A stretch of DNA of 64,000 nucleotides from an uncultured Methanomassiliicoccales archaeon (GCA_942492955.1 OW818644.1:1439541-1503540), one strand, 5' to 3'. Positions 6,356 through 51,629 are shown, counted from the first letter of the stretch. The notes: a model not told the origin generated them from the sequence alone. Translations and numbers: made by a program.

Positions 6356-7327
6356 TCAGAACACGTGCAGGTCGTCCTTGTCATGGTGCAACCTCATCTC
6401 TTCCGGCTTGAACATCGTGCACACCGGTTCCTCGATCTCATGACCGTAGTTCTGGTACCATTTCCCGCACAGCCATCGCTGTAGTGTCTTTATGTCTTCT
6501 TCGCTCATGTGACGGAAACGGCCTTGGAGCTTCAGGTAATCGCTCACCGGCAGCATTTGCTTCGGCTTGTAGGTGGTCCGAGACTCTCCGTCCTCATACT
6601 CGAACAGAGTCCACATGCCGGTCTCGACCGCCAGCTTCGCGATCTCGACGCTCATGGCCGATTCATACTTCCAGCCCGGGACGCATGGTGTCAGGATGTG
6701 CAGGAAGCGGAACCCGGACATGTGTTTGGCCTTGTCCACCTTCCTCACGAAATCGTTGAAATGGGCGATGGAGAGCGTCGCGGCATACGGCGGATCGTGG
6801 GCCTCAACGATCTTCATCAGATCCTTCTTGAAGGTCCTCTTCCCCTGCACTTTGCTGCCGACCGGCGAGGTCGTCGTCCAGGCGCCGAACGGGGTGGACG
6901 AGGACCGTTGTATCCCGGTGTTCATGAACGCTTCGTTGTCCACGCACACATAGATGATGTCCTCGTTCCGATCAAGGGCGCTTGACAGGGCCTGGAGCCC
7001 GATATCGAAGGTCCCGCCATCACCGGCGATGCCGACCACCAGCGACTTCTTCCCCCGGCGACGGTACGCCGCCTTGATGCCGGTGGTGACCGCGCCCGTG
7101 TTCTCGAACGCGGTGTAGAAGTAGGGCGTACGGAACGACGAGTTAGGGTATTGGGCGCTGAAGACAACGGCACAACTGGCAGGAATATAGACGGTAACGT
7201 CCGGACCGAGTATCCGCATCACGTTCTTGATGGCGATGGCGATGCCGCATCCAGGGCAGGCGCCATGCCCGCTGACGAAGAACTCGTTGCGCTTGATGTC
7301 CTTGAGACCGTGCATCTCTTCCATCAC
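6356..7327 (-). CDS. porB: Pyruvate/2-oxoacid:ferredoxin oxidoreductase beta subunit (TPP-binding)
   Basis: GHGACPGCG, GDGGTFDIG.QALS, DNEAFMNTGIQRS. Confidence 0.93.
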   Translation of the reverse strand: MMEEMHGLKDIKRNEFFVSGHGACPGCGIAIAIKNVMRILGPDVTVYIPASCAVVFSAQYPNSSFRTPYFYTAFENTGAVTTGIKAAYRRRGKKSLVVGIAGDGGTFDIGLQALSSALDRNEDIIYVCVDNEAFMNTGIQRSSSTPFGAWTTTSPVGSKVQGKRTFKKDLMKIVEAHDPPYAATLSIAHFNDFVRKVDKAKHMSGFRFLHILTPCVPGWKYESAMSVEIAKLAVETGMWTLFEYEDGESRTTYKPKQMLPVSDYLKLQGRFRHMSEEDIKTLQRWLCGKWYQNYGHEIEEPVCTMFKPEEMRLHHDKDDLHVF

Positions 7328-8496
7328 ATATCACCCCTCAGGTCATGCCAGTAAACATCGCGTTCCGGCACCTTCCCCATGCTGTCCTCGATGACGCCGA
7401 ACACCTTGGCCAGTGTTTCAGGGGTCAGGTCCCTTCCGCCAAGGCCGGCGATATGGTCCGTGATCGGCAGCCCGGACCCGTATAGGGCGTTCCGTACCTC
7501 CGTGAAGACCGGTCCAAAGGAGTTGAACGCCGCAGATCGATCGAACACCCCCAACGCCTTCAGCCCGGACACCGTTTCCAGCAGTTCCGCCTTGGGGAAC
7601 GGCCGCATGAACCTCAACCGGATCAGTCCGGCCTTCTTGCCCTCCGCCCGAAGCTGGTCGACGACCAGTCGCGAGGTGGTGGCCGCCGTGCCGATCGCCA
7701 CAAGGGCGTATTCCGCTCCATCCATGCGGTAAAGGTCCAGCAGGTCCCCGTGTGACCTCCCGAACCTCTTGGTGAAATCGATGTCGATCTCCTTGATGAC
7801 GATCCGCATGGAATCTATCGCCCGGTCGAGCTGATACCGCATCTCGGTGGCATACTCCGGCGAACATATAGGATTCATCACGATCGGGTCGTCCGGGTCG
7901 AGGACGTTCAGCGGGGCGAACTTGGGCAGGAAGCCGTCCACCGCCGCCTGGTCCGGAACGTCGACCCGTTCGACCGTGTGCGACAGCACGAAACCGTCCA
8001 GGCAGATCATCACGGGCAGCATGACCCGGTGATCCTCCGCGATGCGAAAGGCCTGCAGCGTCATATCCAGCGCCTCCTGGTTGTCCTCCACGTAGCATTG
8101 GAGCCAGCCGGATTCGCGCTCGGGCATCGAGTCATTGTGCTCCAGCCATATGCCGGAAGCAGCACCGAGCGAGCGGTTCACATTGGCCATTACCACGGGC
8201 AGACGGATCTGCGGAGCCGCATACAGCATCTCATGCATCAATGCCAACCCCTGAGACGCCGTGGCCGTGAACGTCCGTACGCCACCGGCGCTGGCGCCGA
8301 CAGCGACGCTCATCACACTGTGCTCGCTCTCCACCGGAATGAAGTCCGCGTCCAATTCGCCGTTGTTCACGAACTCGGCGATCTGCTCCACGATCAACGT
8401 CTGAGGTGTTATCGGGAACGCTGGGACCACTTCAACCCGGGCCAGCTTGGCCGCCCATGCCACGGCGTGGTCGGCACTGATGACCTTGACTACCAT
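7324..8496 (-). CDS. porA: Pyruvate/2-oxoacid:ferredoxin oxidoreductase alpha subunit
   Basis: AFPITPQT, VESEHS.MS, TATASQGLALMHE, NRSL. Confidence 0.93.
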   Translation of the reverse strand: MVVKVISADHAVAWAAKLARVEVVPAFPITPQTLIVEQIAEFVNNGELDADFIPVESEHSVMSVAVGASAGGVRTFTATASQGLALMHEMLYAAPQIRLPVVMANVNRSLGAASGIWLEHNDSMPERESGWLQCYVEDNQEALDMTLQAFRIAEDHRVMLPVMICLDGFVLSHTVERVDVPDQAAVDGFLPKFAPLNVLDPDDPIVMNPICSPEYATEMRYQLDRAIDSMRIVIKEIDIDFTKRFGRSHGDLLDLYRMDGAEYALVAIGTAATTSRLVVDQLRAEGKKAGLIRLRFMRPFPKAELLETVSGLKALGVFDRSAAFNSFGPVFTEVRNALYGSGLPITDHIAGLGGRDLTPETLAKVFGVIEDSMGKVPERDVYWHDLRGDM

Positions 8497-9392
8497 TCCT
8501 TCACCCCCTTGACCATCTCAATGGCGTTCACGGGGCACACCTGGGCGCAAATGCCGCACCCTTTGCAGTAACGAAAATCCCACTTCTCGTAATCATCCTC
8601 GAGACGGTGGATGCATCCCTCTGGGCAACAGAACCAGCAGCGCAGGCAGCGTATGCACTTTTCCTTGAGATAGTGGGGAGAATTGGTCCTCCAGGTCCCG
8701 GTCATGTTCTGCCAGGCGCTGCCCGGACCCACGTTCACCTTGCCAAAGGATTCCGAGGGCAACGTGACACCGAGGGGAATGTCCTGCCAATCTGGCAGCC
8801 ACATCTCCCGGCGGGCGATCACCCGGTTGCCTTGACAGGTGCCTATCTTGGTCCTGTCGAAGGCTACCTGGGCCGCATCGGCATTTATCTCCGCCGCCTG
8901 CTTGCCCAGCCTTTCCCCGAACCGGTCCATGATGGCCGCCTTGATCGAGCCCAACGATACAATGTCCTGGATCTTCGCCATGGACCCGAGGATCGATGTG
9001 TTCACTATGGGGGCCTTGATGTGTTCCAGCGCCACCGAGGTCGCGTCGACCGCGGCGCAACGTACCGAGATCCCCAGGTCTACCTCCTCCGGTGACTTCC
9101 GGGTATTGATGACGGCAGATCCATCCGGCTTCAACCCATCGCCCACGGGATCGATGTCCAGCAAAGATTCGTCAAGAATGACCAGCATGTCCGGCTGGTA
9201 GATCTGTGATTTGATCCTGATCTTCTTGTCATCGATGCGTGCGAACGCCCTTACCGGGGCACCGCGACGCTCAGCGCCGAAGAACGGGAACGCCTGAGCC
9301 TCCAACCCCTCGATAACCGCCGCCTCGGCGAAGGCCTGTGCCGCCATGACCGCCCCCTGGCCACCGCGACCATGAAAACGAACTTCGAACAT
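8490..9392 (-). CDS. porCD: Oxidoreductase gamma-delta fusion subunit (PorC plus 2x[4Fe-4S] PorD)
   Basis: EVRFHGRGGQG, FGAERRGAPV at the N-terminus. TGTWR..P, CIRCLRCWFCCP and CKGCGICAQVCP at the C-terminus. Confidence 0.9.
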   Translation of the reverse strand: MFEVRFHGRGGQGAVMAAQAFAEAAVIEGLEAQAFPFFGAERRGAPVRAFARIDDKKIRIKSQIYQPDMLVILDESLLDIDPVGDGLKPDGSAVINTRKSPEEVDLGISVRCAAVDATSVALEHIKAPIVNTSILGSMAKIQDIVSLGSIKAAIMDRFGERLGKQAAEINADAAQVAFDRTKIGTCQGNRVIARREMWLPDWQDIPLGVTLPSESFGKVNVGPGSAWQNMTGTWRTNSPHYLKEKCIRCLRCWFCCPEGCIHRLEDDYEKWDFRYCKGCGICAQVCPVNAIEMVKGVKEW

Positions 9393-9508
9393 GATGAACC
9401 ACTGGCTGACGATTGGTCGCGTAAGTATTTAATCCTGCACCGCTGGTCAATTCAGGAAAGAGGATGAATTCAATACTTTGAAATACACACGGCTCCGAGG
9501 ATTATTGG

Positions 9509-9937
9509 ATGGCGAGCCAAGAAAAGGTCACACTGGTGATATCCAGGGAGACACGGGACCGGATCCTCGCGGTCATGAAGACGCTTCACACAAGTGATAC
9601 AGAAAAATTCCTGAACGACCTTTTGGAAAACATCGAGACCAGTGGACGGAGGCGCAGGGAAGCGTCCTACGAGGTCGTGGAACGCATGTTCACAGCGACC
9701 TGCCCCATGAAGAAGCATAAGATCGTTGCGGATGAGGGCGAGAAGTGTGAGTATTGCGGGGAGATCCTGCTGGACCAAGGAACCGCGATCTGCACATATT
9801 GCGGTTCTCGGGAGATCCAATTCCTGGCGACGTGCCCGAGGCACAAGGGTGGCGCGGGCGTGGTGGACTGTTCGAAATGCGAGGGCGGCAAGGTCGACGA
9901 GAACAAGAAGATCGTCACTTGCCGGTTTCTTGAATGA
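9509..9937 (+). CDS. Hypothetical protein: RHH-like N-terminus plus Cys-rich (Zn-binding) C-terminus
   Basis: KVTLVISRETRDRI (beta strand then helices), then CEYCG, CTYCG, CPRH, CSKC. SD GAGG. Confidence 0.65.
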   Translation: MASQEKVTLVISRETRDRILAVMKTLHTSDTEKFLNDLLENIETSGRRRREASYEVVERMFTATCPMKKHKIVADEGEKCEYCGEILLDQGTAICTYCGSREIQFLATCPRHKGGAGVVDCSKCEGGKVDENKKIVTCRFLE

Positions 9938-9961
9938 TGAAAAGATCGGAACAAATTCGGG

Positions 9962-10474
9962 CTATTTGATCTCCTTGAACATCTCGCTAGGATTTCCGCA
10001 CACCGGGCAGGTCTTGGGTGGATCGTTGAAATGTATCTCTCCGCAGATCTGACAAACGGACAATCTCTGCGCTGGGAGGTCCCTCTTCTTGTTCAAAGAT
10101 TGTTCCGCCTCTTTGAAACTTAGTTCATGGTCCATCTCCACCCTCTTGGCGTAACTGAAACCGAGCGTGGCCTGGGATTTGCCCTCTTTCCTTGATTGCT
10201 CGACGAATTCGGAATACATCTTGCTGTGCTCATTGTTCTCTCGTTCGATCGAGAGCCTGAGGTTCTCCTTGGTGGTCAGAACTCCCCCATACCCTCTCAG
10301 ATGGTGCATGGCGTGGACCGTTTCTGATTCGGCCGCCGCCCTGAACAGCTTCGCGATCTGCCTGTGGCCTTCCTCATCCGCCGCTTCCGAATAAGCAAGG
10401 TATAACCGGCTGGTCTGCGCCTTCCCAGCGAAGGCCAACTTAAGATTGTCATCCGTGGTGACCAACGACGTCAT
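9962..10474 (-). CDS. rbr: Rubrerythrin family protein (first diiron Glu replaced by Lys)
   Basis: NLKLAFAG-K-AQ..LY...ADEEG..QIAKLFRAAA.SETVHA, second ExxH, and CQICG...CPVCG rubredoxin domain. Confidence 0.85.
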   Translation of the reverse strand: MTSLVTTDDNLKLAFAGKAQTSRLYLAYSEAADEEGHRQIAKLFRAAAESETVHAMHHLRGYGGVLTTKENLRLSIERENNEHSKMYSEFVEQSRKEGKSQATLGFSYAKRVEMDHELSFKEAEQSLNKKRDLPAQRLSVCQICGEIHFNDPPKTCPVCGNPSEMFKEIK

Positions 10475-10674: not shown

Positions 10675-11601
10675 TTACTGAACGTAGTCCAGCCAGGCCT
10701 CGTACATCGGGTCCTTGCCGTTGACCGCGGCGCTGAACGCCTGTTGCAGGTCCTTGGTGACCGGTCCAGCCCTGCCCGAGCCGATGGAGATGTCGTCGAT
10801 GTAGCTGATCGGGGTGATCTCCGCCGCCGTTCCGCTCATGAAGACCTCGTCAGCCAGATAGAGCTCCGAGCGGGTCATCGATCTCTCGACGATGTCGTAC
10901 CCCTTGTTCTTGGCTATGATGGAGACGGAGTCCCTGGTTATTCCTTCCAGTATCCCGGCCGACAGCGGCGGGGTGTACAGCACTCCCTTCTTCACCATGA
11001 AGATGTTCTCCCCGGTCCCTTCGGCGACCTCTCCGTCGGAGTTGAGCATGAGCGCCTCGTCGAAGCCGCGGTGCACGGCCTCCAGCTTCGCGATGACCGA
11101 GTTGATGTAGTTGCCACAGATCTTGGCATTGAGCATGGCGGAACGATTTGTCGGCTTCTCCCAGGTCGATGTGATGATCTTGGCTCCGGACTCCAGCTGT
11201 TCCTTGCCCATGTATGCCCCCATATGGGTGCAGGCGATGGCGACCTTGGTCGGCATCTTGGTCGGGTTCAGTCCGATCTTGCCTTCGGGGTTCGCTCCGT
11301 AGTAGGCCAATGGCCTGAGGTAATCGTCATCAGGGTTGCTGGAGCGGACCACCGCCTTGGATGCCGCGCAGAGCTCGTCGATCGAGAACGGGATGTCCAG
11401 CCAGATGACCTTGGCCGAGTTGTAGAAGCGGACCATGTGGTCCTTCAGCCTGAATATTGCCTTGCCCTTGCTGGTATTGTAGACGCGGATGCCTTCGAAC
11501 ACCCCGCCGCCGTAATGCAAGCCGTGCGTCAATATGTGCACGTTTGCGTCCTGCCAGTTCACCAGCTTGCCATCCATCCATATCTTTGAATTATTTGTCA
11601 T
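10675..11601 (-). CDS. ilvE: Branched-chain amino acid aminotransferase
   Basis: LTHGLHYGGGVFEGIR.Y, AKICGNY (PLP Lys), EGTGENIF, ILEGITR, GTAAE. Confidence 0.96.
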   Translation of the reverse strand: MTNNSKIWMDGKLVNWQDANVHILTHGLHYGGGVFEGIRVYNTSKGKAIFRLKDHMVRFYNSAKVIWLDIPFSIDELCAASKAVVRSSNPDDDYLRPLAYYGANPEGKIGLNPTKMPTKVAIACTHMGAYMGKEQLESGAKIITSTWEKPTNRSAMLNAKICGNYINSVIAKLEAVHRGFDEALMLNSDGEVAEGTGENIFMVKKGVLYTPPLSAGILEGITRDSVSIIAKNKGYDIVERSMTRSELYLADEVFMSGTAAEITPISYIDDISIGSGRAGPVTKDLQQAFSAAVNGKDPMYEAWLDYVQ

Positions 11602-11649: not shown

Positions 11650-12012
11650 TCAGATCGCGTTGACCGCTTTGATATATTTGTCCGGTCTGCCGTTGTCGAT
11701 CAGCGAGTCTACCTCTTCGATGCTGCCGATCAGCCTTACCTTTCCAGAGGAGTTGCTCGCCAATGCGTATGATTCCTGCCTGGTCTCGTCGACCAGCTCA
11801 CACTGGATGATGTCATGAAGGCGGGTCAGTGCCTCAACCGATCTCTCGGCCTGGACCTTGTCTATGATGGTAAGCACAACGCGTGCCTTTCCCGGTATCT
11901 CGCACTTACCTACCACGATGGTTTCGACGTTGATCTTCCTCCGGGTGAACTCCTGGAGTATTCGCTGCATCACGCCGAACTCGTCGTTGACGACCATTGA
12001 TATTACCTGCAT
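11650..12012 (-). CDS. ACT-domain protein resembling acetolactate synthase small subunit (IlvH/IlvN-like)
   Basis: ISMVVNDEFGVMQRI.QEFTRRKINVETI.VG..E.PG.AR matches the AHAS regulatory ACT pattern. SD GGAGTGAG. Confidence 0.7.
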   Translation of the reverse strand: MQVISMVVNDEFGVMQRILQEFTRRKINVETIVVGKCEIPGKARVVLTIIDKVQAERSVEALTRLHDIIQCELVDETRQESYALASNSSGKVRLIGSIEEVDSLIDNGRPDKYIKAVNAI

Positions 12013-12273
12013 TTACTCACTCCTTCCCTTCTTCTTCGAACTGGATGTCGTAGATGAAATTTCGTAGTTGCGCACGGAATGGTTCTTCTTGATGGGATGG
12101 TAGTAGCCCTCGTCGCTTTTCCCGTTATCCGACCCTTTGGGATACTTCGGGGTCGATAGCCAGGACATCGAGAACTGCCCGTCGTCATCGTTCATTACGT
12201 GCTTCGGCTTCTTCCTTTCGCCCCCTGCGACCATGCCGGAGACGAAGAACTTGAGCATGATTTTTGATACCAT
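12013..12273 (-). CDS. Hypothetical 86-aa hydrophilic protein (start 12273 or 12258)
   Basis: Stop abuts the next ATG (TAAATG) and codon usage looks host-like. No recognisable family. Confidence 0.55.
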   Translation of the reverse strand: MVSKIMLKFFVSGMVAGGERKKPKHVMNDDDGQFSMSWLSTPKYPKGSDNGKSDEGYYHPIKKNHSVRNYEISSTTSSSKKKGRSE

Positions 12274-12298
12274 AAGCTGTACCTTCTAAGCGATCATT

Positions 12299-12328
12299 AG
12301 GGACCGACCCTCGGAGAGAGTCTCCCCT
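12299..12328 (-). promoter_or_regulatory. GC-rich hairpin immediately after the leader stop codon
   Basis: AGGGG-A-GACUCUC-UCC-GAGGGUC-GG-UCCCU. Confidence 0.6.
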
Positions 12329-12329
12329 T

Positions 12330-12395
12330 TCAGATACCCAATACCTGCTGCTCGACCACTACGATAAGTACTGGAGTCTGAGCAACGCTGAGCAT
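12330..12395 (-). CDS. Putative BCAA-sensing leader peptide MLSVAQTPVLIVVVEQQVLGI (21 aa)
   Basis: 11 of 21 codons are Val/Leu/Ile, including a VLIVVV run. TATA-like TTAAATATA starts 30 nt upstream of the ATG. Lies ahead of the ACT-ilvE operon. Confidence 0.7.
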   Translation of the reverse strand: MLSVAQTPVLIVVVEQQVLGI

Positions 12396-12421
12396 CGTCG
12401 ATTGAATTGTAAGGAATATAT

Positions 12422-13222
12422 TTAACGTTTCTCATCGAGGAGCTCTTCACACAGGGGGATAGGTTCGCGATATTCCCCCTCTTTAATGATCCGCTTCAGG
12501 AAGGAGCGCGTTCTTTCGTTCTTCGGGTTGGTGAAGATGTTCTCCGGGGTGCCTTCCTCGGCGATCACGCCCTGGTCCATGAAGATGACCCGATCGGCCA
12601 CCTCCCTGGCGAAGCCCATTTCATGCGTTACGACCACCATCGTCATTCCGGTGTTGAGCGCCAGGTCCTTCATGACATCCAGCACCTCACCGATGAGTTC
12701 CGGGTCGAGGGCCGATGTCGGCTCATCGAACAATATGACCTTCGGATTCATGGCGATGCACCGCGCGATGGCGACGCGTTGTTGCTGTCCCCCTGAGAGC
12801 TGACCTGGATAGGCATCCGCCTTCTCATCCAACCCAACCTTTATTAGAGCTTCAATGGCGACCTGGTCAGCCTCCTCCTTGCCCATCTTCTTCACCTTGA
12901 TCAGAGGCAGGGAAACGTTGCGCCTGGCCGTCAGGTGCATGAAGAGGTTGAAGCTCTGGAAGACCATGTTCATCTGGGTTCTGACCAGGTTGATGTCGAT
13001 GTCCTTTGCGGTGATGTCATAGCCCTCGAACAGCACCTTTCCGCTGGTCGGTTCGTTCAACAGGTTCAGGCAACGCAGCAATGTGCTCTTGCCGCTCCCG
13101 CTGGGCCCGATGATGACCACGACCTCGTTCGCCAATATCTTGAGGGAGATGCCAGAGAGAACCTCGTGATCGTTGAAGGACTTCCTCAGGTCGACCGTTT
13201 CGATTATCGGGGTCGTCATCAT
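12422..13222 (-). CDS. Polar amino acid ABC transporter ATP-binding subunit (GlnQ-like)
   Basis: [43 protein letters not shown]. Confidence 0.93.
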
Positions 13223-22759: not shown

Positions 22760-23632
22760 TCAATGTGAAACGCTAAGCTTGACCACGTTCTGATCCTTCT
22801 TTGCTCCGATCGCATCCGCCACCGGTCTGCATTTGGTGCGCATCAAGTAGGCGACCCTGGGATACCTTTGGTCCGAGAGCGACTCGAAGTTCGCCATACC
22901 CTTGGAGATTATCAGGTCGGCTTTCTCCATTTCCGCGCGGAGCGCCTGTCCGATCAGCCCGGTGTCGATGCCGATGGCGAACGACCCCGTGGTCATCGTC
23001 TCATCGAACACTTTATCCATGCCAGTGGTGCTCAGGTCGGCCTCTGTCACGTCGGTCAGTATGGGCTCACCTTTGGCCACGCCGATCACCCTTACCCCCA
23101 TGCCCTTCAGCTCGTTCACGAGCAGGCGGTCGAAAACGATCTCGCCGCAATTGTCCATGAGATAGACGACCGTGCTGCCCTTGACCAGAAGTTCCCTCAT
23201 CTTGTCCACGTCGTTAACGCCCAGACCTTGGCCCACCAAAGAATCGAATTCGCGGCTCAGGTCCTCCGGTTCATCGTAACCGATGCCGAGCCCGAAGTCG
23301 AGCACATTCCCGATGATCGACATCAAGCACGCCGCCTCCAGCCGGTCGGATGAGTTCATGACGAAAGCCTCTGCCCGGGGATAGAGGGACTGAGCGATCT
23401 GGTTGGCCCTCTTCTTCAGTTCGGAGTATGGATCGTTGCTTCCGATGGCGTCATACACCGCGCGGTGCACCTTGGTCGCAATGGACGCAGAATTGACGCC
23501 AGGACGGAATCCGCTGGCCAATATCTTCACGGCGACCGACATCGCCTCGTCCTTGAAGGCCGGATCGACCAGCTCTGTCTCGAATAGGACCCGGTTGAGC
23601 AGACAGGGGACGCAGTCGGCTGCTATTTGCAT
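22760..23632 (-). CDS. ARMT1-like/DUF89 damage-control phosphatase
   Basis: DCVPCL, DPY..LK, IGNVLDFG, DNCGEIVFD, IISKGMANFESL, KC.PVA. Confidence 0.9.
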   Translation of the reverse strand: MQIAADCVPCLLNRVLFETELVDPAFKDEAMSVAVKILASGFRPGVNSASIATKVHRAVYDAIGSNDPYSELKKRANQIAQSLYPRAEAFVMNSSDRLEAACLMSIIGNVLDFGLGIGYDEPEDLSREFDSLVGQGLGVNDVDKMRELLVKGSTVVYLMDNCGEIVFDRLLVNELKGMGVRVIGVAKGEPILTDVTEADLSTTGMDKVFDETMTTGSFAIGIDTGLIGQALRAEMEKADLIISKGMANFESLSDQRYPRVAYLMRTKCRPVADAIGAKKDQNVVKLSVSH

Positions 23633-23718: not shown

Positions 23719-23778
23719 TTATTTCTTTCCGCATCCGCAGCCGCACTTCTTGTCCTTCTTTACTTCCTTCTCTGCCAT
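23719..23778 (-). CDS. Unannotated 19-aa microprotein MAEKEVKKDKKCGCGCGKK
   Basis: Strong SD GAGGTGA upstream, TATA-like TTAAAAA near 23826-23832, and T-rich tracts after the stop. Fills an otherwise empty intergenic gap. Confidence 0.7.
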   Translation of the reverse strand: MAEKEVKKDKKCGCGCGKK

Positions 23779-51529: not shown

Positions 51530-51629
51530 GGGTCCGTAGCTTAGTCCGGTGGAGCGTCAGGCTCATAGGATGCACTTAGCCATCTAAGAAACCCGATGGT
51601 CGTCGGTTCGAATCCGACCGGGCCCACCA
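51530..51629 (+). tRNA. tRNA with CAT anticodon (probably Ile2, possibly Met) and a 23-nt intron at 37/38 (51568-51590)
   Basis: GGGTCCG/CGGGCCC acceptor, discriminator A plus CCA, CT-CAT-A loop, GTCGG-TTCGAAT-CCGAC. BHB-like intron. TTTTATAT promoter near 51495. Confidence 0.88.

Follow-up and report, generated by a model that had tools for sequence, protein, structure and literature searches.

A conserved Ile/Leu/Val-rich short open reading frame ahead of branched-chain amino acid operons in Thermoplasmatota: a candidate ribosome-mediated sensing leader in Archaea

Can an archaeal operon for branched-chain amino acids be controlled by a short peptide gene, whose translation reports the supply of those amino acids? 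The question is raised by a stretch of 64,000 nucleotides (nt) from an uncultured Methanomassiliicoccales archaeon (GCA_942492955.1 OW818644.1:1439541-1503540); the whole of this stretch is referred to below as the window. In it, an unannotated short open reading frame (sORF), MLSVAQTPVLIVVVEQQVLGI, is located 57 nt 5' of the genes ORF86, ACT and ilvE (Table 1), and a preliminary description of the window proposed that this sORF is an amino-acid-sensing leader. Leader-peptide attenuation is a textbook bacterial mechanism. To our knowledge, transcription factors are the main means of regulation described so far for archaeal amino-acid operons, few cis-regulatory RNAs are known, and such a leader is not known from an older archaeal description. 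Based on a comparison of related loci, we consider it probable that the sORF is a cis-acting leader peptide gene, which would report to the branched-chain operon behind it how much charged Ile-, Leu- and Val-tRNA is available.

The sORF reads ATG CTC AGC GTT GCT CAG ACT CCA GTA CTT ATC GTA GTG GTC GAG CAG CAG GTA TTG GGT ATC TGA. Ile, Leu and Val account for 11 of its 21 residues, including the core VLIVVV, a run of six; the background share of these residues in the genes of the window is 24.5%, and the binomial probability of at least 11 in 21 is 0.005. There are 394 ATG-initiated sORFs of 15-40 codons in the window: two of them reach 52% Ile/Leu/Val, and a run of six is found only in the leader sORF. 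It is also the only sORF of the window that lies 5' of a gene and has a TATA-like motif at the right distance, and no other leader-like sORF with a correctly spaced TATA box was found there. The TATA box, TTAAATATA, begins 30 nt 5' of the sORF ATG and overlaps the TAA stop (12424-12422) of the upstream ABC ATPase gene. The sORF lacks a Shine-Dalgarno (SD) sequence 5' of its start, whereas ORF86, the ACT gene and ilvE have one each. Concerning codon usage, GTA represents three of the six Val codons of the sORF vs 11% of the Val codons in the genes of the window. The position and composition of the sORF agree with the preliminary description, and so do the TATA box, the GAGAAAC element preceding it, its distance from the ATG and its overlap with the stop of the ABC ATPase gene. 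The leader peptides have no Pfam match and no exact match in a collection of 15 billion protein sequences, and such sORFs are therefore currently invisible to annotation. The observation of the sORF is thus confirmed and is well beyond chance; the decisive point is its conservation in about 45 related loci.

Species-representative genomes scanned with IlvE provided nine loci with the order ABC transporter, gap, ORF86, ACT and ilvE, and a positional equivalent of the sORF is present in all nine. A metagenome scan with an ORF86 alignment provided 30 more loci, 29 of them including upstream DNA, and the sORF is found in each of these 29. Loci L119 and L120 were added through look-ups of ACT proteins. 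An sORF of 19-22 codons is present in 42/42 syntenic Methanomassiliicoccales loci with upstream DNA, in six sequence families (A to F, Table 1) and in an ilvB-type operon. The preliminary description had pointed to a conserved short ORF rich in branched-chain residues as the feature to look for in relatives, and its presence in all these loci favours that description. The Ile/Leu/Val share of the related sORFs is 36-57% vs the background of 24.5%, and in the blocks nearly every hydrophobic residue is I, L or V; F, M and W are absent. All lineages of this first family (family 1) contain a central run of 4-6 Ile/Leu/Val codons, and the second block 5' of the stop is kept as VLGI, VVI, LVI, LVV or LLV. 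The N-terminal half of the leader is hypervariable, while the centre and the end stay Ile/Leu/Val. Within family A the sole amino-acid difference is at codon 17 (12345-12347), which is CAG (Gln) in the window and L001 vs CTG (Leu) in L002-L004, L015 and L081-L083; in the commoner form, that with CTG, 12 of the 21 codons are for Ile, Leu or Val. For comparison, the background rate of similar sORFs in 1.7 Mb of fetched DNA is about one per 190 kb of strand.

The pattern of change is that of a reading frame. Across 28 unique sORF sequences, no in-frame stops are found (0/28), vs 24/28 and 5/28 in the other two frames, and the length differences between families in a MAFFT alignment are whole codons. 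In family B, codons 2, 5, 6 and 7 differ in each of their three positions, and the residues they stand for are unrelated, with the frame intact. A different start codon is seen only in L119, where GTG replaces ATG at an unchanged position, and the stop is TGA in all 45 sORFs, as compared with 56% of the genes of the window. Concerning the promoter, the TATA 8-mer begins 30-33 nt 5' of the start codon in 38 of the 45 loci, and near-matches are present in three of the remaining seven. The usual archaeal spacing from the centre of the TATA box to the transcription start site is about 26 nt, and the transcript is therefore predicted to begin at or next to the AUG. This fixed distance supports the earlier view that the ORF is essentially leaderless, with the start site predicted from the TATA spacing. 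Taken from these comparisons, the sORF is conserved and apparently translated.

Leaders of this kind are found before three operon architectures: ORF86-ACT-ilvE, ilvB-ACT-ilvE and ilvBNC-ilvE. The enzymes of these operons produce the very amino acids, Ile, Leu and Val, whose codons are clustered in the leaders. In L007, L008 and L113 the ACT gene is directly 3' of ilvB (acetolactate synthase catalytic subunit), the operon is ilvB-ACT-ilvE, and the sORFs lie directly 5' of ilvB (Table 1). The upstream neighbour in L113 is again an ABC transporter, and ORF86 therefore occupies the position of ilvB after the leader. ORF86 was also considered as a remnant of ilvB, which is rejected, as it has no similarity to IlvB. 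The second family is found in other Thermoplasmatota (L115-L117), where an Ile/Leu/Val-rich sORF of 28 codons is present 5' of ilvB-ilvN-ilvC-(FAA hydrolase)-ilvE; its Ile/Leu/Val-rich tract contains 3-5 consecutive codons with short interruptions. L118 (~1686-1745) keeps the Ile/Leu/Val tract and the hairpin and has no ATG, GTG or TTG start. No leaders were found 5' of the PALP (threonine dehydratase-like) genes which adjoin the family-2 operons. The only common features of the family 1 and family 2 peptides are their position, their Ile/Leu/Val bias and a stop-associated hairpin. Two unrelated families which are alike only in these respects are the best argument that selection keeps the amino-acid class and not a particular peptide.

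Within families, there are constraints in addition to those of coding. The preliminary description looked for synonymous divergence; within families, the synonymous sites are unusually conserved instead, which points to RNA- or codon-level constraints on top of coding. When the window is compared with L002 or L004, the sORFs agree at 22/22 third positions, vs a third-position identity of 67-78% where the residues of ORF86, ACT and ilvE are conserved, and the sole sORF substitution (CAG to CTG) gives one extra Leu codon. In the 16 unique sequences of family B, codons 10-13 (ATT GTT CTG GTC), 16 and 17 are invariant, and synonymous changes are found at codons 4, 8, 9, 14, 15 and 19. The extra constraint could reflect selection for particular codons, RNA pairing or a DNA-binding site.

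One structural feature of the leaders is a hairpin at the stop, which we designate P2. A hairpin at or just after the stop is predicted in 12/12 lineage representatives, formed from different sequences, with z-scores of -1.1 to -3.5 relative to dinucleotide shuffles. In family 1, P2 starts 0-2 nt after the stop; in family 2 the hairpin includes the last codons and the stop, and its distal stem differs between loci yet stays complementary. The SD sequence of the first gene follows 15-30 nt after P2. All cells of P2 in family B (100%) are paired, and only one partner of a pair changes (G-U to A-U or G-C), so that covariation proper is lacking; a covariation check inside this family gave pairs kept in 94% of cells and one double-sided change, by which the structure is not proven. 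P2 is robust in the folding models. In a second, tentative structure, P1, codons at the 5' end of the sORF would pair with those of the polar spacer located 3' of the central block, with the Ile/Leu/Val run in the loop; this topology recurs in the minimum-free-energy folds of most lineages. RNAalifold gave no consensus for a mixed alignment of 34 sequences because the families are out of register; P1 and P2 come from folding each family by itself. With a covariance model of family B, L101 is recovered and family A weakly so, but families C, D and F and the ilvB type are missed; no single RNA motif is therefore conserved, and the model was set aside as a means of discovery. A search of positions 11900-12700 against Rfam, carried out to an E-value of 10, gave nothing below E=6 (best score 14.8 bits) and no leader or riboswitch; in the whole window, two tRNAs are the only matches at the Rfam gathering thresholds. 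A scan for sigma-70 promoters and terminators also gave nothing relevant between the sORF and ORF86.

Two minor observations concern the same region. In L119 (2995-3045), a GC hairpin, GGTGCGGCC TTA GGCCGCACC, is located at the end of the gene 5' of the leader promoter, and a T-rich tract including T6 comes after it; this is a terminator-like signal of this clade, and P2 is unlike it. In family-B loci (L089, L094, L099, L100, L104 and others), a mini-ORF of 12 codons runs from the P2 loop, behind an SD-like GGGGAG, and ends on the start of ORF86 (ATGA). As a functional element, this mini-ORF was set aside as probably incidental: its start triplet varies (ATG, TTG, CTG, GTG, TCG) and families A and C lack it.

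How could such a leader act? When Ile-, Leu- and Val-tRNAs are scarce, the first ribosome would stall within the central block (VLIVVV), some 20 nt short of the stop, and with this ribosome parked near the 5' end P2 would stay folded. When they are plentiful, ribosomes would reach the TGA, unwind the base of P2 while reading the last Ile/Leu/Val codons, and then release. The two ribosome positions would set the expression of ORF86/ilvB-ACT-ilvE, which would be higher under starvation. The sensor half of this account is well supported by the comparative evidence, from which we infer the sensing of amino-acid supply. Concerning the output, our best guess is translation initiation on the first gene, mRNA survival or both, acting through P2 and ribosome occupancy, and this is the weakest part of the account. 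Since neither a U-tract nor an antiterminator is seen, the output is not thought to be intrinsic termination of the bacterial type.

Several results weigh against this explanation. The C-terminal half of the leader (e.g. DIVLVQRVLGI) is conserved as a peptide, which also fits a micropeptide or an arrest peptide. The host-associated relatives L111, L112 (strain BRNA1) and L114 have ACT-ilvE directly behind a promoter, without a leader. P1 is statistically weak (z-scores of -2.3 to +1.2; duplex tests, p 0.008-0.88), and in several lineages it is no more stable than shuffled sequences. A run of at least four U after P2 is found in no lineage, and no significant pairing of the antiterminator kind is seen between the sORF end and the 5' arm of P2: the segment that runs from the end of the Ile/Leu/Val block to the P2 loop is no more stably folded than shuffles in the 12 lineages (z-scores of -1.7 to +2.4). 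The accessibility of the first gene's ribosome-binding site was calculated by partition-function folding with the ribosome footprint held single-stranded; these are equilibrium models, and kinetic and steric effects are outside their scope. The mean unpaired probability of the SD-AUG region in 37 leaders of family 1 is 0.39 for the free RNA, 0.43 with a stalled ribosome and 0.40 with a ribosome at the stop, and the corresponding values in family 2 are 0.56, 0.59 and 0.45; masking of the ribosome-binding site thus shows no consistent switch with ribosome position in the folding models. The preliminary idea of an amino-acid-sensing leader is supported by the conserved Ile/Leu/Val sORF, with the caveat that it is not an attenuator in the bacterial sense: neither a terminator nor an antiterminator was found, and masking of the ribosome-binding site is not predicted.

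The same evidence bears on explanations in which no sensing ribosome, or a differently acting one, is involved. If the locus were an RNA or DNA signal (a structured 5' leader, a small RNA, or an operator, e.g. of an Lrp-type regulator), the ORF would be incidental. The nucleotide conservation from the TATA box to the stop, which exceeds that of neighbouring genes, and the conserved structure of P2 are consistent with this; but start codon, frame and stop are kept in all 28 unique sequences, across lineages of differing nucleotide sequence, the start codon changes only to GTG, the family B covariance model barely recognises family A and misses others, and Rfam gives no match. We regard this explanation as very unlikely. 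A classical transcription attenuator, in which the position of the ribosome would choose an antiterminator or a terminator before ORF86, is likewise given little weight. It is true that a control-codon leader ORF with a GC-rich hairpin resembles E. coli ilvL/ivbL, and that coupled transcription and translation occurs in archaea. However, the hairpin is followed by a U-tract in no lineage and has no competing pairing, intrinsic termination in archaea relies on oligo-T and not on hairpins, and a terminator-like hairpin with T6 is seen elsewhere in the clade (L119). The version of the attenuator with factor-dependent termination (aCPSF1/FttA) remains.

Two other explanations assign the function to the peptide. 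As a functional micropeptide with two hydrophobic strands (IVLV, turn, VLGI), the product would act with the ACT protein or the aminotransferase and would not be a sensor in cis. This is unlikely in our view, although families keep the amino acids of the C-terminal half, the block-turn-block pattern recurs and the sORF is invariably found together with the ACT gene and ilvE. Against such a peptide are an unconstrained N-terminal half, synonymous sites that are more conserved than those of nearby genes (for which peptide selection alone gives no explanation), hydrophobic positions that are almost only I, L or V, two sequence-unrelated families that are alike only in Ile/Leu/Val bias and position, and relatives that have ACT-ilvE without the leader. 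As an arrest peptide, it would sense free branched-chain amino acids in the ribosome tunnel, and when these are abundant a stall at the TGA on P2 would block the downstream gene. The last 10-12 residues are conserved, the stop is invariably TGA, and the hairpin abuts or spans it; this explanation also yields the correct direction of regulation with no need for alternative RNA folds, none of which was found. Known arrest peptides, however, are not enriched in the amino acid they sense, whereas here enrichment is the main conserved feature; moreover, I, L and V interchange freely between lineages and the C-termini differ strongly between families (VLGI, YVVI, LVIA, VLVV, LRILRP), so that we find an arrest peptide quite improbable.

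The favoured explanation, a leader that reports tRNA charging, has several partial precedents. Like E. coli ilvL (ilvGMEDA), ivbL (ilvBN) and leuL, the archaeal element consists of a short leader ORF with mixed Ile/Leu/Val codons (multivalent control) followed by a GC-rich hairpin, and like ivbL one archaeal variant lies directly 5' of acetolactate synthase genes. It differs from them in being archaeal and, as predicted, leaderless, with a promoter made of a TATA box and a B recognition element (BRE), no U-tract terminator, no detectable antiterminator and no Rfam leader match. In Corynebacterium glutamicum, the ilvBNC operon has an Ile/Leu/Val-rich leader peptide that is translated without a ribosome-binding site, as predicted here (Morbach et al. 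2000 via PMC13158618; PMC11857589); that leader is bacterial and is described with terminator and antiterminator hairpins, a pair which is not seen here. Leaderless polycysteine sORFs in mycobacteria regulate the translation of the next gene without a terminator, and a stalled ribosome there disrupts a structure that masks the downstream ribosome-binding site (bioRxiv 10.1101/834739). These are likewise leaderless first-cistron sORFs with control codons for an amino acid made by the operon, and by analogy they are the closest precedent for the proposed output on translation; the differences are the lack of ribosome-binding-site masking in the folding models here, the other amino acids and the other domain of life. 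In TnaC and the fungal arginine attenuator peptide, a ribosome held at the stop codon of a short upstream ORF, or close to it, controls the downstream gene, and the archaeal leader resembles them in its invariant stop and conserved C-terminus; but they are not enriched in the sensed amino acid and act by specific tunnel contacts, whereas here it is the residue class (I, L, V) that is conserved.

Full-text literature searches returned bacterial systems or unrelated work and no archaeal leader-peptide attenuator, although an older description in subscription journals is possible; an archaeal ribosome-profiling paper reports upstream open reading frames and no amino-acid attenuator. The suggestion in the preliminary description that a leader of this type has not been described for archaeal ilv genes thus agrees with the literature searched. 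What is known is the logic of the control-codon leader peptide; what is not known from earlier work is its archaeal occurrence, on a predicted leaderless mRNA, with a stop-adjacent hairpin and without a terminator. In our judgement the case is evenly balanced that this is the first ribosome-mediated amino-acid-sensing leader in Archaea, one which is leaderless, occurs across Thermoplasmatota in at least two independent families, is read out by a stop-adjacent hairpin and has a mechanism distinct from bacterial attenuation. If the leader senses the charging of Ile-, Leu- and Val-tRNA, this would show that metabolites can be sensed through translating ribosomes in archaea. It would also offer a natural system in which to study the link between a ribosome on a leaderless mRNA and the expression of downstream genes without an intrinsic terminator, would bear on transcription-translation coupling, reinitiation and mRNA decay in archaea, and would give annotators a template to find similar unannotated sORFs before other archaeal biosynthetic operons.

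The features of the locus and the leader families are listed in Table 1.

Table 1. Features of the leader locus in the window and leader sequences of the related loci. Locations without a locus label refer to the window.
Feature	Location	Strand	Remarks
Leader sORF	12330-12395	minus	MLSVAQTPVLIVVVEQQVLGI; 21 codons + TGA, unannotated
Central control block VLIVVV	12354-12371	minus	Codons 9-14 (GTA CTT ATC GTA GTG GTC)
Second Ile/Leu/Val block VLGI	12333-12344	minus	Codons 18-21 (GTA TTG GGT ATC), directly 5' of TGA (12332-12330)
Promoter	12417-12432	minus	Purine-rich BRE-like GAGAAAC, then TATA box TTAAATATA (12425-12417); read from the sequence
P1 (tentative)	12334-12395	minus	5' sORF codons paired with polar spacer codons after the central block
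P2 hairpin	12299-12328	minus	AGGGG.GACUCUC UCC GAGGGUC..UCCCU; -16 kcal/mol, begins 2 nt after the stop
SD-like GAAGGT of ORF86	12281-12286	minus	7 nt 5' of the ORF86 start codon
ORF86	12013-12273	minus	Conserved small protein, first gene after the leader; no known family
ACT-domain gene	11650-12012	minus	120 residues, acetolactate synthase regulatory (small) subunit type, IlvN/IlvH-like; PF22629, E 5e-13
ilvE	10675-11601	minus	Branched-chain amino acid aminotransferase; NF005146 415 bits (E 1e-124), TIGR01122 397 bits, both above cut-offs
ABC ATPase gene	12422-13222	minus	GlnQ/HisP type, upstream neighbour of the leader
Leader family A			MLSVAQTPVLIVVVEQ[QL]VLGI
Leader family B			MxxLxxxT[DV]IVLVQRVLGI
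Leader family C			MRSTAACK[IT]IVLLVSERYVVI
Leader family D			MCSAAATVVILVLSSGQLVIA
Leader family E			MRAAALPGVIVQVLRALGV
Leader family F			MFGLSCDTVISCVVIRQSIVG
sORFs directly 5' of ilvB	L007, L008, L113		MNIPACKVESVLVLLSVQDLLV, MKTSARKVKSVLVLLSVQVLVV, MNAALLLVRNSLLVSVQVLVV
Family-2 sORFs	L115:1669-1755, L116:1676-1762, L117:1670-1756		MDAAAGHAATLLLVVTLGVPVDLRIEGL, MRESAGQGDLVPILVVLGVLVDLRILRP, MSETAGRNEHASVPLVLDVVLDLRILSL

Concerning the genes around the leader, the statement of the preliminary description that the sORF heads ORF86, an IlvH-like ACT gene and ilvE is backed by the PF22629 and NF005146 matches. The homologues of ORF86 have 77-86 amino acids, a hydrophobic N-terminus and an invariant core, W-x-STPKYP-x3-DNG-x2-D-x-GY-x2-P-x-K; ORF86 has no Pfam or NCBIfam match, and no Pfam family was found for any of the homologues. 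In other lineages the counterpart of the ORF86 SD sequence is GAGGT or GGAG. Further upstream of the leader, beyond the ATPase gene, a polar amino-acid ABC transporter is represented by its permease and its binding protein.

On the other side of the operon, the genes after ilvE in the window are one for rubrerythrin and three for a 2-oxoacid:ferredoxin oxidoreductase of the POR/VOR type (6356-10474, minus strand), and the oxidoreductase is directly 3' of ilvE in L010-L013, L072 and L119. This proximity is a hint of a route between branched-chain amino acids and branched acyl-CoA, which may serve either their synthesis or their degradation. L012 and L119 share the contig JAJRAK010000025.1, which gives two ilvE paralogues in one genome: one is a stand-alone ilvE with the oxidoreductase and without a leader, and the other belongs to a leader-ORF86-ACT-ilvE operon. 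Elsewhere in the window, a tRNA gene of 97 nt is present at 51530-51626 (plus strand; 52.9 bits vs the tRNA model), and its length allows for an intron, consistent with archaeal origin; together with the best-matching relatives, a tRNA of this kind assigns the window to the Methanomassiliicoccales. A small Lys/Cys-rich ORF, MAEKEVKKDKKCGCGCGKK, is found at ~23719-23778 (minus strand), 5' of the gene at 22760-23632.

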